64,000 bases of DNA, taken from NCBI GenBank assembly GCA_043799545.1, contig JAZDNO010000031.1, forward strand, positions 1 to 64,000, written 5' to 3'. Shown piece after piece: positions 12,851-27,041 of this stretch; within the stretch, counting starts at the first letter, position 1, and each line of letters starts with the position of its first letter. Origin of the DNA: Methanobacteriota archaeon (lineage in GTDB: Archaea > Thermoplasmatota > Thermoplasmata > SG8-5 > DAIRED01). Made by a program: the position numbers and the translations under genes. Under the pieces are notes generated by a model. It had not been told where the DNA came from. It made no database searches and saw only the letters and a list, made by a program, of their open reading frames with translations.

Positions 12851-15307
12851 CTACGGGTATATCACCGTCGCCGGCGGGTTCGGTATACCGTAATCGGCCG
12901 GGTTCGGCCGGCTGTAGATGAACTGGTATGTGTTCGACCATGAGGCGTCCGAGGACGAGAAAGAATCGGAATTGTACGAGTTCGCGCTGCTGGCGTATCC
13001 TCCGACAGTGGCTTCCTCCCAAATCTCGACGCCTGTTTGTTCGTTCTTGAACGCCAGATATTTGATGTGGACGCTCCATGTTATCGGTTGCACCTCTTCA
13101 GTGTTCGAGTCGTGGTCGGCATAGTAATGGATGCGGATTTCATATGTTCCGTAGAGGTCGGCCGAGTTTGGCAGCGCCATCCCTTCGGTCGCGTAGTAGT
13201 GCTCCGGCCCGTACCCGCGCGTGTTGTCGAAGTCCAGATAGGGGCTGTTCGCATCGTACCCTTTATTCTGGTAGTAAATGTGCCTGCCTTCGACCCCGTC
13301 GATTGTAGGCTCAAGAACGTGGAGGTCCACGTCGCTGTCGGACTGGCCCCAGGCCATGGTGATTGTTAGGGCCGCCGGCGAAGCGGTGCATTTGACCTGG
13401 TCGCGCAGGAACCCCGCCCATTTCGACAGCGTGTTCGCATCGGTCGCGAGGATGATGATGTCGTTCGTTCCGGTGAAAAGCGGGATGACCTGGGAGAAAG
13501 CCCCGTTGGACACGGGAGTTTCAAACTTCTGGCCGCTGACGAATATCAGCGTCGAGGTCACGGCCTGCTGGCCGCCCGATATCGTTCCAGAGAGGGTGAT
13601 TTTATTTTCAGCGGTGTCGCGCACATCGTCCGAGTCCGTATCCTCCGGTGTGGTGCCAGTGGGAGTGCTGGTCGGGTCGGTCAGCTCCACTTTGGGGAAG
13701 ATGGAGTCGTCGGCGAACTTCTTCTCGGCTGAATCGTAGAGGCCCTTGAAGGCGCTGTCGGGCGTGAAGACCTTGTCGCCCGCGTGGAAGAACCAGTTAA
13801 ATTTCAATGGCGTGAATCCAGCCGCCAGACCCGATTCGTAAATCTGTGTGAAACCGCTCGTGTAGTTGAAAGGTATCTGTTTACGCACTGTTCCCGATGC
13901 GGAGCCCGGATCGTTGGGGTCGTAGGTGTCGAACGCCCCGTTGCTGTACTTGTACGCCAGTATCGCATGCGAGCCAGGGTTCCAGGTCCCGTTCCTATAT
14001 TGCAGGTAGAGGCCTATCACCTGCGGCTCCCCGCTGACAATCATGCCGTGGATGAGGCTGATTCCCGCGGTTCGAGAGGGAGAGTTTATCCTCGTCATCT
14101 CAGGGATGTTGAGCTTCCACGTGGCATCTAAGGACGCCCTCGAAGCAAGCTGTATTGCGGTAGCGTCGTCGCGCCACTCAGACTGGTCGCCCTCTCGGTA
14201 CTTGTCGTAGAGGTCCGCGCCGGATACCGGCTTCTGCCACCTGTAGTACCATTTCGCGAAGGCGGACATCCCGAGGCAGTTTCCGCCTGCGGTCAGGTAC
14301 GAGCCCTGGTTGGGGATGAAGAATCCATCAGATTCCGGGCGGAATCCGGTATCGTAGCCGACGCTGATGTTCTGCCCCTCGAAGTAGTCCATGACGGCTT
14401 CGATCGCCGTGAAGTTGGAGAACGTGCTTATGGCGAACGAGATTGTGTTGGCCGTCAGATCCTGGTTTATGAATCCCGTGGCGCTGAGGCTCTGGGTGAG
14501 GGCGTCGTAGCGGTAGAATCTGACGTTGTTCTCGTTCGTGACGAGCGCCGGGTCGTAAGGCATCGTTACCAGCGCAGGCGTGTCGAGGACGTGGAACTTG
14601 TTCCAGAGCTGCGAGCCCGTCGCCTCGATCTGGATCATCTTGCTGACGATTTTGGTGCCGTCCGGGAGGCCGGACACCTGGTTGATGTCCGCATACCTCA
14701 CCGCATAGGAAATCGCCTCATTCGTAGCGCCACTGGGAATATCGAGCCTGAAGCCGTTCAGCGGATTCGCCGCGCTAGCGACCGAGAGGCTGCCTCCCGC
14801 CGCTCCTATGGCTTGAGAGACGGCCGAGGTGAAAGTCCCTGGAGTGAGGATGTTGCTGCCGGGCTCGACGGTCTGGGAGCCATCGTCGCCGCCGTCATCC
14901 CCGCCATCCGGCGTGCCGGTGCCAAAAAGCAGGACTGCCCCGACGCCTGCGATGACGATTATCGCCACTACTGCGATCACCGCTATCACGAGGAAGGTGG
15001 AAGGACCGCCTCCTGACGAGGGACGAGGGTGCGTCGCCGGCTGCTGCGGGGGCGGATAATACTGCGGTTGCGGATAGGGCTGGCTCGGTTGCTGGTACGT
15101 CTGTTGCTGCTGATGGGGAGCCTGCTGGTAACCCAGGTCGGGCTGCTGCTGTTGCTGATACGATGGCTGAGGCTGTTGATATGCAGGTTGCTGGTATGAT
15201 GGCTGCGATTGTTGGTAGGATGCCTGGCCAGACTGTACAATCTGCGTTCCGCATTTCGGGCAAAAAACCGTCTCACTCCATGCACCGCAATTCTGGCAGG
15301 TCGCCAT
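12851..15307 (-). CDS. Membrane-anchored surface protein: zinc ribbon, Q/P/Y linker, TM, ZU5-like, papain-like Cys-His-Asp domain, Ig-like, YfaP/DUF2135-like
   Basis: CQNC..CPKC; one TM helix; GGNCLGMS / SHAILAY / YDPN; DVDLHVLEP...DFDNTRGYGPEHY. ATG 15307 follows a GGTGA RBS. Confidence 0.75.
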   Translation of the reverse strand: MATCQNCGAWSETVFCPKCGTQIVQSGQASYQQSQPSYQQPAYQQPQPSYQQQQQPDLGYQQAPHQQQQTYQQPSQPYPQPQYYPPPQQPATHPRPSSGGGPSTFLVIAVIAVVAIIVIAGVGAVLLFGTGTPDGGDDGGDDGSQTVEPGSNILTPGTFTSAVSQAIGAAGGSLSVASAANPLNGFRLDIPSGATNEAISYAVRYADINQVSGLPDGTKIVSKMIQIEATGSQLWNKFHVLDTPALVTMPYDPALVTNENNVRFYRYDALTQSLSATGFINQDLTANTISFAISTFSNFTAIEAVMDYFEGQNISVGYDTGFRPESDGFFIPNQGSYLTAGGNCLGMSAFAKWYYRWQKPVSGADLYDKYREGDQSEWRDDATAIQLASRASLDATWKLNIPEMTRINSPSRTAGISLIHGMIVSGEPQVIGLYLQYRNGTWNPGSHAILAYKYSNGAFDTYDPNDPGSASGTVRKQIPFNYTSGFTQIYESGLAAGFTPLKFNWFFHAGDKVFTPDSAFKGLYDSAEKKFADDSIFPKVELTDPTSTPTGTTPEDTDSDDVRDTAENKITLSGTISGGQQAVTSTLIFVSGQKFETPVSNGAFSQVIPLFTGTNDIIILATDANTLSKWAGFLRDQVKCTASPAALTITMAWGQSDSDVDLHVLEPTIDGVEGRHIYYQNKGYDANSPYLDFDNTRGYGPEHYYATEGMALPNSADLYGTYEIRIHYYADHDSNTEEVQPITWSVHIKYLAFKNEQTGVEIWEEATVGGYASSANSYNSDSFSSSDASWSNTYQFIYSRPNPADYGIPNPPATVIYP

Positions 15308-15555
15308 AATTTCACCAAAGGGCAAAAATGCGGAGATGTATTAAAAAGTATGGCCGAAAATTTCAGAATGGTAGTAAGTATGATTTCGATAGAACAATAA
15401 CAAATTCATCACAACGAGATTGAGGTCAGGAGGTGATTACTCGTTGTGGAGACGGACTGACTCCCCGATGGGTAATTGACGAAAACCGTCAGTCCTATCC
15501 ATTCCCCTCTGTCACAATCGAAATTCAAACGTTCCTGCATTCGCAGAAAATAGTC

Positions 15556-15649
15556 CGAGCGAGCAGGCTGACCCGAGGCTTTTGGGATACCTACAACTTT
15601 TCCCCGCAGGGTCAGCCAGCGCAGCGAGGAAGGAAAAGGGGTAGCGGGG
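15556..15649 (+). repeat. Dispersed ~95-bp intergenic element, copy B
   Basis: Aligns to 4327-4421; its last 8 nt coincide with the 3' end of the tRNA on the opposite strand. Confidence 0.9.
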
Positions 15650-15763
15650 AATGGATTTGAACCATTGGTCTACGGGTTATGAGCCCGTCGGGATTTTAGG
15701 CCCCTGGCCTTAAGCCAAACCGGAGGAATTCCGGTTAGGGTTTCCTAGCTACCCCACCCCGCT
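15642..15763 (-). tRNA. Initiator tRNA-Met(CAU) with 47-nt D-loop intron (15741-15695)
   Basis: Acceptor AGCGGGG/CCCCGCT (A1:U72), discriminator A, anticodon arm ACGGG-CTCATAA-CCCGT with three G:C pairs, T arm AATGG-TTCAAAT-CCATT. Removing 47 nt gives a 75-nt cloverleaf; CCA is not encoded. Confidence 0.93.
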
Positions 15764-15813: not shown

Positions 15814-15820
15814 TTATAAA
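15814..15820. promoter_or_regulatory. Palindromic TATA box (ttataa) between divergent tRNA and E1-like genes
   Basis: Only AT-rich box in the 120-bp divergent spacer, about 50 nt from the tRNA and about 65 nt from the ATG. Confidence 0.45.
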
Positions 15821-15882
15821 GGTTGCGCAAATGCGAAAAACGTTTATCCAGGCAAGGGTTTTCAGGTCGGATGTGCGGGGAG

Positions 15883-16671
15883 ATGGTAAAGGCAGGCTAT
15901 CAGGACGGCGACCGCCTCGACCGCTCGAAGCGGCTGAGCTGGTTCGATTCCGATGCGCTGGCGAATGCGCGAGTCCTGGTCGTCGGAGCCGGGGCGATTG
16001 GAAACGAAACCGCAAAGAATCTCGTCCTGGCCGGATTCAAGAAAATAACGCTCGTCGACATGGATCATATCGTCCTCTCGAACCTCAACCGCTGCCTCTT
16101 CTTCTCGGAGGCGGACGCGGGCGGAAAAAGGCTCAAGGTGGATGTCGTGGCCGAAGGGATGCGGCGGCTGGACACCGGGGTCGCCGTTGAAACGCGTTCG
16201 AAGCCCGTGCAGGAAATGCCGGACGATTTCATCCCCGGCCATGATCTGGTACTAGGATGCCTGGACAACCTCGCGGCGAGGCTCTACATAAACTCCCGAG
16301 CATACGCGGCGGGGATCCCGTACGTCGACGCTGGCACCGACGGCTTCGTCGGAAAGGTGATGATGGTTATCCCGCCAGAAGGCGCGTGCCTGGAGTGCGG
16401 CGCGAACCGCTCCCACGCGAAAATCGTGCAGCAGAGGTTCGGCTGCACGGGTTCGGACGTCACGTTCTTCGCTCCCAAGCTGGCCGCGGAGATAACGACC
16501 ACAAGCGTCGTCTCGGCAATCCAGGTCAGGGAGGCGATGAAGCTGGTATGCGGAAAAAGGGAGCTGGCGATTAAGAACGTCGCCTACTACGACGGAAACC
16601 GCAACGTCTTCGAGGAGCTGGAGGTTCAGATGAATCCGGATTGTCCGAACCACCTTGCGAGGCGCGGATGA
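15883..16671 (+). CDS. ThiF/MoeB/E1-like adenylyltransferase
   Basis: VLVVGAGAIGNE, DMDHIVLSNLNRC, CLDN, ACLEC zinc motif, terminal CPNH. Confidence 0.9.
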   Translation: MVKAGYQDGDRLDRSKRLSWFDSDALANARVLVVGAGAIGNETAKNLVLAGFKKITLVDMDHIVLSNLNRCLFFSEADAGGKRLKVDVVAEGMRRLDTGVAVETRSKPVQEMPDDFIPGHDLVLGCLDNLAARLYINSRAYAAGIPYVDAGTDGFVGKVMMVIPPEGACLECGANRSHAKIVQQRFGCTGSDVTFFAPKLAAEITTTSVVSAIQVREAMKLVCGKRELAIKNVAYYDGNRNVFEELEVQMNPDCPNHLARRG

Positions 16672-16694: not shown

Positions 16695-17534
16695 CTAGGC
16701 CTTTCCATCCCTGATGACGCGAATTACCTCTAGCGAAAAGTCGCACGATTCGCAGGAGTGGGTCAGGCTACCGAGCGACACGATGTCCGCCCAGGCCGCA
16801 TAGTCGGGGGCGTTCTCCTCTGTTATTCCGCCAGAAGCCTCGATTTCGGTGCCCGGCGCCAGCTTTCGTACCGCCGCAGCGATGCGCCCCCCCTCTTCAG
16901 GCGAGGCGTTGTCTATCATTATCACGTCCACGCCTATCCCGGCTGCTGCCACGGCCTCTTCCTCGCTAGTGACCTCGACCTCGACGCGCAGTCCCGCGGG
17001 CGCGCCCGCCTTGACGCGTCTCACCGCCTCGGCGACCCCCCCGGCGAGCTGGATGTGATTGTCCTTGACAAGGATCATGTCGTAGAGCCCGCTCCTGTGG
17101 GGCCAGCCTCCCCCCAGGACGACGGCGCGCTTCTCGAACCTGCGGAAACCCGGCGTCGTCTTCCGCGTCGCGGCGACCCTGACCTTCGGGTTCACGGCCC
17201 GGCACGCCTCCACCAGCATCCGCGTCTTGGTCGCGATGCCGCTCATCCTCATCACTATGTTGAGGGCCGTGCGCTCCCCGGAAAGGACGGCCTGGGCGCT
17301 CCCTTCCACCTCCAGAGCTGGCGTGCCGGCGTCAAGCCAATCGCCGTCCTTGGCAAGGGGGTTGACTTTCGCACCCAGCCTGGCAAAAACCTCCGCGGTC
17401 TCCGCGAGCCCCGCGGCGACGCAGCGCTCCTTGCAGAGCATCCTGGCGTACAGCCTCTCGTTCCTGGATATCGATGCGGTCGTCACGTCTCCAGCGCCCA
17501 AGTCCTCTTCCAGGAATCGGTCGATGTCGTCCAT
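16695..17534 (-). CDS. nadC: Nicotinate-nucleotide diphosphorylase (carboxylating)
   Basis: ATRKTTPG, HRSGLYDMILVKDNH, EVEV, IMIDN and EASGGIT motifs. Confidence 0.97.
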   Translation of the reverse strand: MDDIDRFLEEDLGAGDVTTASISRNERLYARMLCKERCVAAGLAETAEVFARLGAKVNPLAKDGDWLDAGTPALEVEGSAQAVLSGERTALNIVMRMSGIATKTRMLVEACRAVNPKVRVAATRKTTPGFRRFEKRAVVLGGGWPHRSGLYDMILVKDNHIQLAGGVAEAVRRVKAGAPAGLRVEVEVTSEEEAVAAAGIGVDVIMIDNASPEEGGRIAAAVRKLAPGTEIEASGGITEENAPDYAAWADIVSLGSLTHSCESCDFSLEVIRVIRDGKA

Positions 17535-17633
17535 CGTCCACCGCTACGCCAAATCGGGTAATAAACCTTCCCCGCGAAGGGCGAGTTTGGTGTGCATCGC
17601 GGGTATCTCGTAGCAGGGCATTTATAGACCTAT

Positions 17634-17927
17634 GTGCATGATTGTCGTGCGCGTTTCGCGCGGAGGCATTACGTGGGCACTAGCATAGAGAAGTATGGAC
17701 TGGACAGGCTGCACCGGAAGGGCCTGGAGCTTTCTTTCAAATGCCCCAGGTGCAACAGCGCCAGGCTGTGGATGAAGCACAGGGAGGATTTGGATTTTTG
17801 GCACGGCGTCGTTTGCCCCAAGTGCGGCACCAAAATTATCCTGGATTCTCTGACCCTGGTCGTGATGAACGAGGGTGCGTGCGCCCAGGCGGAGGCCGGC
17901 TCGGTGAAGGATCAGGTCCACGCCTAG
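17634..17927 (+). CDS. Small zinc-ribbon protein
   Basis: CPRC and CPKC pairs; fills the gap upstream of the tRNA methylase; start uncertain. Confidence 0.55.
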   Translation: MHDCRARFARRHYVGTSIEKYGLDRLHRKGLELSFKCPRCNSARLWMKHREDLDFWHGVVCPKCGTKIILDSLTLVVMNEGACAQAEAGSVKDQVHA

Positions 17928-17964
17928 CGACAGGGTAAAATACGGAGTTGGCTCTCGCCCAGCC

Positions 17965-18972
17965 GTGAGGCTCTGCTTCGAGACTTCCGGAGAGCATCCG
18001 ACGCTTCCTGGTGCAGAGATAGCGGCCACGGTGGGGGCAGTCGCGGGAAGGAAACCTTCTGTCACATCGGACGGCCTGGCGATATTCGCTTCGTGCCCTG
18101 CGCGAGCGTCCGCGGGCGTGGTTTCGAGGCTTGCCCTCTGCCATTCGGTTTCCGAGGTTTTGGGGGAGGGCGTTACCGTTGCCGGCGCTGGCGGAATCGC
18201 CCCGCTGAAAGATATCTCCGGAAAATCCGTGAAGGTGCGCGCCACCATCGTATCCGGCGGATGGACCAAAGCACAGCAAGGGGCTGCGGAGCGGAAGGTC
18301 GGAGCCGTGCTTGCAAAGCGAAACGACATCGACCTGCGCGACCCGGAGATCGAGGTGCGGATCGTTCTCGGCTCCATGGCCAGAGTGTGCCGGTTAATTG
18401 GAAAAATCGACAGAAAGGGATTCGAGGCGCGCAAGGGCGAGAACCGACCGTTCTTCTCACCCATATCGCTGCATCCGAAGTACGCGAGAGCGCTGGTCAA
18501 CCTCTCGGGGGTGAGGCCGGGCGGGCGCTTGCTCGACCCTTTTTGCGGGACGGGCGGGATACTCATCGAGGCGTCGCTCGCGGGCGCGAAGCCCATGGGG
18601 AGCGACCTCGACCCCGGAATGGTTGATGGCTCGGCGAGCAACATGGCGCACTTCGGACTGAAACCCGCGAGACTGGAGAAATGCGACGTTTCGGGGATAA
18701 CGGGGTTTTTCGGCCAGGTGGGCGCGGTCGCTACCGACCCGCCGTACGGCAGGGCGTCGTCAACGGGGAAGGAGAAGCCAGGTCTGCTGCACAGGCGCAT
18801 GCTGCTCGCCATCCGAGACGTTCTGGTTCCGGGAGGGCGCGCGGCCATTGTGCTACCCGATACCTCGGTCTTGAAGCATCTTCCGGACGGGCTCCGCATG
18901 GCGGAGAGCCATCCGTTGAGGGTCCACCGCTCGCTCGTAAGGCACTTCGTGGTCCTGCGAAAAGATGGCTAG
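17965..18972 (+). CDS. trm11: tRNA (guanine(10)-N2)-dimethyltransferase (THUMP + methyltransferase)
   Basis: RPFFSPISLHPKYARALVNL, LDPFCGTGG and TDPPYG motifs. Confidence 0.9.
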   Translation: MRLCFETSGEHPTLPGAEIAATVGAVAGRKPSVTSDGLAIFASCPARASAGVVSRLALCHSVSEVLGEGVTVAGAGGIAPLKDISGKSVKVRATIVSGGWTKAQQGAAERKVGAVLAKRNDIDLRDPEIEVRIVLGSMARVCRLIGKIDRKGFEARKGENRPFFSPISLHPKYARALVNLSGVRPGGRLLDPFCGTGGILIEASLAGAKPMGSDLDPGMVDGSASNMAHFGLKPARLEKCDVSGITGFFGQVGAVATDPPYGRASSTGKEKPGLLHRRMLLAIRDVLVPGGRAAIVLPDTSVLKHLPDGLRMAESHPLRVHRSLVRHFVVLRKDG

Positions 18973-26796: not shown

Positions 26797-27041
26797 CCTT
26801 TCACCCTGGCCTTGTTGATTAGCGCCACAACGTCTTGCACGGTGAGCGTCTTGCCAGCCGCCACGACCTTTCCGTCGATTGCCAGGGCGGGCGTGGACAT
26901 TATCCCCTTCTCGACCATCTCGTTTATGTCCGTCACCTTGACCACCTCCGCCTGGACGTTCATCTGCTTCACTGCCTCGCGCACGCTCATCTCCAGGCTG
27001 ACGCACTTGGCGCAGCCGACACCGAACACCTCGATTTTCAT
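26793..27041 (-). CDS. Small thioredoxin-family redox-active disulfide protein
   Basis: MKIEVFGVGCAKC...GIMSTPALAIDGKV; this is the real part of ORF-track entry 26793..28211. Confidence 0.92.
   Translation of the reverse strand: MKIEVFGVGCAKCVSLEMSVREAVKQMNVQAEVVKVTDINEMVEKGIMSTPALAIDGKVVAAGKTLTVQDVVALINKARVKG

Follow-up and report, generated by a model that had tools for sequence, protein, structure and literature searches.

How does an archaeon make its initiator tRNA when the only gene for it is interrupted in the D-loop by an intron with a relaxed splice motif, and the only splicing endonuclease (EndA) that its genome encodes has no specific loop? The locus that raises this question lies in a 64,000-nucleotide stretch of DNA, here called the window, on contig C24 of the assembly of an uncultured Thermoplasmata archaeon, of 2.06 Mb in 31 contigs (58% GC, 94% complete). 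McrA was not found in this genome, and affiliation with the methanogens was rejected on that ground. We consider it very probable that the locus is a working initiator tRNA-Met (iMet) gene with an EndA-type, protein-spliced intron between tRNA positions 20a and 21.

The minus strand from 15763 to 15642 reads exactly as in the preliminary description of this DNA, and its features are listed below. The tRNA index i equals 15764 minus the coordinate; the cut position is ambiguous inside the A runs, and the coordinates assume that each bulge is cut between its second and third nucleotides.

15642..15763, minus: initiator tRNA-Met(CAU) gene, whole, intron included, 122 nt
15742..15763, minus: 5' exon, tRNA positions 1-20a, index 1-22, in the same register as intron-less relatives
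15695..15741, minus: intron, 47 nt, index 23-69, placed by the fold, self-match and comparison with intron-less genes
15642..15694, minus: 3' exon, tRNA positions 21-73, index 70-122
15681..15679, minus: anticodon CAU, on a stem closed by three G:C pairs
15744..15747, minus: exon strand of central helix H, UAGG (positions 17, 17a, G18 and G19), from the minimum free energy (MFE) fold
15697..15700, minus: intron strand of central helix H, CCUA, from the MFE fold
15741..15743, minus: AAA bulge at the 5' splice site, closed by H on one side and h' on the other, from the MFE fold
15694..15696, minus: 3' splice-site AAA, with no exon helix closing it (C16 opposite U22), a 3x2 internal loop in the MFE fold
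15701..15740, minus: inner helix h', CCCU (15740..15737) with GGGG (15704..15701), including the two hairpins it encloses
15736..15718, minus: hairpin 1, 7 bp, from the MFE fold
15717..15705, minus: hairpin 2, 5 bp, from the MFE fold
15814..15820, minus: TTTATAA, resembling a TATA box, 51-57 nt upstream of the mature 5' end, read from the sequence
15634..15637, minus: TTTT run, 5 nt past the gene, read from the sequence

The 5' exon consists of the acceptor 5' strand, U8 and G9, the D-stem 5' strand and the D-loop AGCUAGGAA, up to GGAA. The 3' exon runs in the order A, UCCC, G, anticodon arm (three G:C pairs, CAU), T arm, acceptor 3' strand and discriminator A; CCC comes next, and CCA is not encoded. 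The TTTATAA element is likely the archaeal promoter of the gene, AT-rich TATA-like elements being found upstream of the iMet gene in several relatives too, and the TTTT run is likely an archaeal oligo-T terminator. The gene sits between an 824-aa ORF (12851-15325, minus) and a divergent ThiF-family gene (15823-16671, plus), after which come a quinolinate phosphoribosyltransferase gene (16695-17534, minus) and a 425-aa ORF (17622-18899, minus); neither the 824-aa nor the 425-aa ORF has a Pfam match.

Removing the intron in silico leaves a 75-nt cloverleaf, with a predicted spliced junction GCUAGGAA-AUCCCG, that ARAGORN names tRNA-Met(CAU), and the earlier assignment, an initiator tRNA-Met interrupted at 20a/21 by an intron of 47 nt, is borne out. 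The product has the marks of an archaeal initiator: the anticodon CAU, A1:U72 and, in the anticodon stem, three G:C pairs in a row (29-31:39-41). It is identical to the genes of five intron-less relatives at 65-69 of 75 positions (87-92%) and to that of a sixth at 62 of 75, and the intron-less relatives all read GGAAAUCCC at the D-loop junction, in the register of the excised product.

Folding the 122-nt gene without constraints gave an MFE of -51.1 kcal/mol (z = -2.6; 3 of 200 shuffles reach that stability) and recovered the acceptor, anticodon and T arms. It also recovered the 4-bp central helix with AAA on both sides that had been read from the letters: UAGG pairs with CCUA (index 17-20/64-67), a 3-nt bulge stands on each strand, and the 5' bulge occupies index 21-23. 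The 4-bp inner helix CCCU/GGGG (24-27/60-63) follows and forms a three-way junction with hairpins of 7 bp (28-34/40-46) and 5 bp (47-51/55-59), so that the branched shape proposed for the intron stands, with both hairpins slightly longer than had been given. The 3' site is a 3x2 internal loop, A14 G15 C16 against A68 A69, beside a register-shifted D-stem. The structure of the preliminary description, which keeps a canonical D-stem, comes out at -49.7 kcal/mol, 1.4 kcal/mol above the MFE. The outer helix h, which would pair exon with exon over 2 bp or more and directly close the 3' bulge, is absent. C16 faces U22 in the fold, as had been noted of the exon-side helix, and a strict hBHBh' motif is impossible because these two nucleotides cannot pair. 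A strict BHB in another register was rejected as well: three other cut-site pairs yield the same mature sequence, and none of them, checked by hand, has a 4-bp helix. The motif is a relaxed one, of the HBh' or BHL-like class, at site 20a/21.

A genome-wide search for an initiator-type anticodon arm returned the gene at 15642..15763 as the only match; the two other CAU tRNAs in the genome are of the elongator or Ile2 type. The same-genus genome G001 and the relative G005 each have a single iMet match, which is again the intron-containing copy. An intron-less iMet gene elsewhere, raised beforehand as an alternative, was not found in the 94%-complete assembly. The prediction that default tRNA calling would pass over the gene proved right: ARAGORN reports no tRNA in the window and misses the gene genome-wide even with its intron option, and Rfam gives a partial, mis-registered match that scores 31.6 bits where the cut-off is 29. 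The genome tRNA scan did not find genes for Ala(CGC), Arg(GCG) and Arg(UCG) in the assembly; these may be unassembled or disrupted beyond detection by the scan. On the same contig, 24.5 kb past the end of the window (C24, 88555-88639), an 85-nt tRNA with the long variable arm of the Ser/Leu type is given the anticodon GAA (Phe) by ARAGORN.

It could be argued that this copy is decaying or unused, a functional iMet gene lying in the unassembled part of the genome, or that the insert is never removed. Some 6% of the genome is unassembled, the rest being spread over 31 contigs, and no spliced read occurs among the RNA contigs, which came from relatives. Against this, neither exon is damaged and both are almost the same as in relatives, the interrupted copy is the only one found in three genomes (this one, G001 and G005), and the motif is kept with compensatory changes in at least 120 species, as described below. 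The elbow that the D-loop makes with the T-loop needs G18 and G19. An unspliced tRNA could not form it, because the central helix sequesters both nucleotides. We therefore regard an unused or unspliced gene as scarcely credible. The transcript data leave this balance where it is: the RNA contigs at the locus, from two metatranscriptomes, derive from relatives and not from this organism, and so carry no weight for or against splicing. One of them, of the intron-less type, reads GGAGAUCCC, and at its junction G stands in place of the expected A; a second retains a 28-nt intron unspliced. A DNA contig (run X2) is identical to the window across the intron, and in the search of sequencing runs the share of sampled words present in any one run never exceeded 20%.

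The survey of iMet genes in Thermoplasmata that had been suggested as a check places the intron in a broad setting. We sampled 40 relatives and recovered the iMet gene in 36. Eight of the 36 carry an intron at the same D-loop site (one with a T-loop intron besides), nine a canonical intron at 37/38 (two with a T-loop intron besides) and two a T-loop intron alone, and the remaining 17 have no intron. A pattern scan that took one genome per species found the same-site D-loop intron in at least 120 species genomes; nearly all the matches listed are labelled as Thermoplasmata MAGs, including Methanomassiliicoccales and Ca. Lutacidiplasmatales. One match is filed under an Acidobacteriaceae MAG (L093, JASIAO010000353.1, 3 kb): an archaeal iMet gene with a 29-nt D-loop intron, on what is most likely a mis-binned Thermoplasmata contig.

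From these species genomes, 126 D-loop-intron iMet genes could be parsed, and such recurrence of one motif at one site goes far beyond chance. The central helix is CAGG/CCUG in 109 of them and UAGG/CCUA in 10, with Y-R covariation of the first pair. The 5' bulge is AAA in 122 of 126 and the 3' site is AAA in 118 of 126, and the intron is 27-50 nt long, with a mode of 28. Among 59 distinct introns of 28 nt, inner helix h' has 8-9 bp with compensatory changes: eight of its nine columns are paired in 52-59 of the 59 and the remaining column in 43, the pairs being G-C, A-U, C-G and G-U, and the loop varies freely. Exons and AAA bulges are invariant in this set while the inner helix varies, a pattern that is the signature of what we take to be a maintained EndA substrate. 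Single copy and same-site conservation with compensatory changes together identify a real intron and not a pseudogene.

The EndA gene tree places this genome, its congener G001, G005 and G002 in one group (SH-aLRT 96), and all four have the D-loop intron. Elsewhere on the tree, near-identical genomes of one genus differ in iMet intron state, which changes at least three times on well-supported branches and six times by parsimony. The tree is of a single gene and was made by a quick method; the row for G015 is aberrant (branch length 10, probably mistranslated) and was disregarded. One genus includes iMet genes that are intron-less or have D, AC, D+T or AC+T arrangements, and since the arrangements differ within one genus, turnover of iMet introns is fast. 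T-loop introns of about 120-130 nt are found in sister genera (L039, L061, L185 and L187, in G008, G017, G003 and G014), and one of 35 nt in L059 (G034); such introns sometimes co-occur with a D-loop or 37/38 intron. A copy of the iMet 5' end, 13-14 nt long (AGCGGGGUGGGGU...), lies 131 nt upstream of the intact gene in G019 (L050) and 62 nt upstream in G033 (L183), and looks like the footprint of an element integrated into the tRNA gene.

The branched shape of the intron has a much narrower distribution than the site. A two-hairpin intron is present in this genome, in the congener G001 and, more weakly, in G005; in other lineages the fold at the same site is unbranched, a plain hairpin or another shape. 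G001 keeps all three helices, and at the base of its hairpin 1 G-C replaces A-U. Because the introns outside this genus and G005 are unbranched, the site and the motif appear older than the branch. It had been proposed that the structured intron has a function of its own or a mobile origin, and neither proposal gained ground. BLAST with 7-nt words found no second copy of the intron in the genome, only chance matches of at most 14 nt. Neither a C box (RUGAUGA) nor a D box (CUGA) occurs in the 47 nt, and there is no ORF within them; a guide-bearing intron of the box C/D kind, as in tRNA-Trp, and an intron-encoded peptide were rejected accordingly. The two-hairpin branch would be a lineage-specific elaboration of the intron loop, with no separate function detectable.

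The genome does contain other two-hairpin inserts, on which an argument for mobility could be built: the branched intron might be, or derive from, a mobile twin-hairpin cassette that occupies D- and T-loops in dead tRNA fragments. At about 50246-50440 of contig C15 stand two dead 5' halves of tRNA-Ser(UGA), each with a two-hairpin D-loop insert of about 47 nt after GGUUUA, and on contig C12, downstream of tRNA-His (26864-26937), a spare tRNA-His 3' end bears a two-hairpin insert in its T-loop. Size, two-hairpin layout and D-loop position resemble those of the iMet intron. Against a common origin, the cassettes fold as tandem hairpins with neither a closing helix nor a BHB-like motif, BLAST with 7-nt words finds the intron unlike them and unlike the rest of the genome, and the same-site introns outside the genus and G005 are unbranched. 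Kinship with the cassettes was rejected on the missing similarity and the lack of a closing helix or BHB; descent from such a cassette is improbable, and a mobile origin is a weak lead.

Two other tRNA genes of this genome have introns of the same design. The gene for tRNA-Arg(CCG) (contig C30, 75687-75791, minus; L220/L221), which scores only 20 bits with Rfam, has a D-loop intron of about 30 nt after about position 17. Its helix is GUAG/CUAC, its 5' bulge has 3 nt and its inner stem is CCCGCC/GGCGGG; an outer helix is lacking. G001 and G002 share this intron, G030 and G022 do not have it, and intron-less orthologues fix the mature D-loop at about 10 nt. The gene for tRNA-Lys(UUU) (contig C27, 41308 to about 41475, plus), reported by neither ARAGORN nor Rfam and found by BLAST with the exons of tRNA-Lys(CUU), has three introns, in the D-loop at 20/21, in the anticodon loop and in the T-loop. 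In the introns of iMet, Arg(CCG) and Lys(UUU) alike, the exon strand of the ruler helix is made of the D-loop nucleotides around G18 and G19. As tRNA-Arg(CCG) and tRNA-Lys(UUU) share the D-loop intron design, EndA must process this class routinely.

Which enzyme is available for this task? The genome has one endA gene (contig C1, 19527-20618, minus, 364 aa), and a second EndA paralog was not found in the genome. Its Pfam architecture is N-C-N-C, and its two domains score 92 and 67 bits in the profile search. Tyr303, His311 and Lys342, in the C-terminal unit, align to Y115, H125 and K156 of M. jannaschii; aligned with M. jannaschii alpha, the catalytic unit shows hardly any gaps and no insertion, and the 10-residue crenarchaeal specific loop (CSL) of A. 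pernix falls against gaps. EndAs of broad specificity are marked by a Lys-bearing loop inserted beside the active site, the CSL in (alpha-beta)2 enzymes or the ASL in epsilon2 enzymes, and this protein has none. The N-terminal unit is a complete domain that matches the whole catalytic-domain profile (67 bits); it has Leu for the catalytic Tyr and apparently keeps the His and Lys of the triad. Among solved structures the best match (E 1e-40) is 5X89, the M. kandleri beta-alpha fusion, followed by A. fulgidus EndA (4e-27) and T. acidophilum EndA (8e-23, C-terminal part alone). The typing of endA that had been called for thus yields one gene for a two-unit, 364-aa protein without CSL, which appears to be alpha'2-like, with two tandem units in one chain and the C-terminal one catalytic. 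In this it resembles the alpha'2 enzymes of A. fulgidus (1RLV/2GJW) and T. acidophilum (2OHC), which likewise have tandem units, a catalytic C-terminal unit and no CSL; it is longer than either (364 aa against 305 and 289), and its N-terminal unit is without the deletion that PMC5829648 describes as typical of EndAs from Thermoplasmatales, Halobacteriales and Archaeoglobales. Nearly every sampled relative, with or without an iMet intron, has an EndA of about equal length that matches this one over its full length; a short, Thermoplasma-like EndA (an open frame of about 299 aa) was seen in G033 (1.49 Mb) alone among those sampled. The ligase RtcB is encoded in the genome (601 bits).

Two bodies of literature bear on what such an enzyme can cut. 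According to reviews, Euryarchaeota with alpha4 or alpha'2 enzymes have single, strict-BHB introns at 37/38 only (PMC4090602, PMC4033280). Efficient cutting of relaxed motifs is described as restricted to enzymes with a specific loop, and Hirata and Kaneta class the alpha'2 enzymes as narrow (PMC5829648, PMC6379350). On the other side, Tocchini-Valentini reports that homodimeric EndAs cut a BHL-like motif (PMC8707768), and the A. fulgidus enzyme cuts such a motif on full-length pre-tRNA (PMC6379350). The premise that homomeric EndAs prefer strict BHB, from which the preliminary description had set out, accordingly holds in the one body of work and is contradicted in the other. In PMC8707768, which restates Tocchini-Valentini et al. 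2005, the BHL-like motif is defined as a bulge of 3 nt together with an internal loop, with a 4-bp helix between them, which is exactly the geometry of the iMet MFE fold; as the iMet motif fits the definition exactly, no special enzyme is strictly required. The motif has been shown mainly at 37/38, whereas here it lies within the D-loop, where the elbow is unable to form before splicing.

The nearest known case is the pre-tRNA-Glu(UUC) of M. kandleri, which has an HBh' intron at 20b/21 in an organism whose EndA lacks a specific loop (Kaneta et al. 2018, PMC5829648). Like the iMet intron, it belongs to a euryarchaeal-grade lineage, lies in the D-loop one position away and has an HBh' motif with an unclosed 3' site, and the M. 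kandleri enzyme, like the EndA described here, has neither CSL nor ASL. The differences are that the tRNA is one for Glu whose gene bears a canonical intron too, that the M. kandleri EndA is a two-gene (alpha-beta)2 heterotetramer while both units here are in one polypeptide, and that the M. kandleri intron is that of one species, in contrast to an iMet intron that spans at least 120 species and is branched in this genus. The essential tRNA-Glu must be spliced in vivo, yet removal of its HBh' intron in vitro was poor with the A. fulgidus alpha'2 enzyme and with the loop-less M. kandleri EndA (PMC5829648). Among Crenarchaeota, D-loop introns at 20/21 are a known class (PMC4090602). The Aeropyrum pernix pre-tRNA-Thr has a protein-spliced, relaxed intron at a 20/21-type site, like that of iMet (Hirata 2011, PMC3241643), and Thermoproteales have several non-canonical introns per genome and, as in tRNA-Lys(UUU) here, genes with three introns (Sugahara 2008, as cited in PMC4090602). 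Their EndAs are (alpha-beta)2 enzymes and have a Lys-bearing CSL, which is absent from this EndA. The intron is therefore of a known kind, relaxed and at a 20/21-type site, in a clade and with an enzyme type for which the reviews do not lead one to expect it. In the literature searched, a scope outside which the tables of Marck and Grosjean 2003 and GtRNAdb lie, no paper reports non-canonical tRNA introns in Thermoplasmata or Methanomassiliicoccales, and prior documentation of this intron in the clade, raised at the outset as a possibility, was likewise not found there.

How, then, would the precursor be processed? We propose that iMet is transcribed from the upstream TATA-like box and that the CCUA at the 3' end of the intron pairs with UAGG of D-loop positions 17-19, G18 and G19 included, to form a 4-bp ruler helix. 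The inner helix and its two hairpins would hold the 5' AAA bulge in position, and the 3' AAA, 4 bp away on the opposite strand, would lie in an internal loop, completing the HBh'/BHL-like motif. Both sites would be cut by the single two-unit, alpha'2-like EndA, acting as a putative dimer; RtcB would join the exons and probably circularise the intron, after which G18 and G19 would be freed for the elbow between D- and T-loops and CCA would be added. We infer both that the precursor is cleaved and ligated in this way and that a plain EndA suffices. The sufficiency of EndA is unproven, because the loop-less enzymes of A. fulgidus and M. kandleri do poorly on a comparable HBh' intron (PMC5829648).

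This last point is where a further explanation enters. The preliminary description had suggested an endonuclease of broadened specificity, and broadening by a known determinant is unsupported, because the genome has a single alpha'2-like EndA with no CSL and no second paralog. Broadening by a route of another kind is possible: plain alpha'2 activity would be insufficient, and a determinant not yet described, other than CSL or ASL, would widen the specificity of EndA, either the complete N-terminal unit or surface residues. This genome and its class have many relaxed D- and T-loop introns, the A. fulgidus alpha'2 enzyme is poor on the 20b/21 HBh' intron (PMC5829648), the EndA described here is nearer to M. 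kandleri 5X89 than to the A. fulgidus and T. acidophilum enzymes, and its N-terminal unit matches the full catalytic-domain profile. The catalytic unit, on the other hand, has no insertion relative to M. jannaschii alpha and nothing equivalent to a CSL, almost every sampled relative has an EndA of similar length, even where the iMet gene is intron-less, and homodimers cut BHL-like motifs in the work of Tocchini-Valentini (PMC8707768). On balance we find this explanation doubtful, and prefer a working iMet gene whose protein-spliced intron is removed by the EndA at hand.

What the locus means for the biology of these archaea follows from this reading. An essential tRNA with one gene copy hinges on the excision of a relaxed D-loop intron, in a lineage whose sole EndA has no specific loop, and at least 120 species share this arrangement. 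As standard tRNA finders miss the gene, MAGs of these lineages will be scored as being without an initiator tRNA. The EndA and its iMet precursor form a natural, easily cloned enzyme-substrate pair with which to test what determines EndA specificity and to resolve the dispute between the two groups of authors. We also advance, tentatively, the broader idea that the EndA of Thermoplasmata other than Thermoplasmatales, with its complete N-terminal unit and neither CSL nor ASL, is naturally broad and removes relaxed D- and T-loop introns, including that of the sole iMet gene. If this is true, such an enzyme would be a third, independent route to broad specificity, and alpha'2 enzymes would no longer be tied, as they are in textbooks, to single canonical introns.
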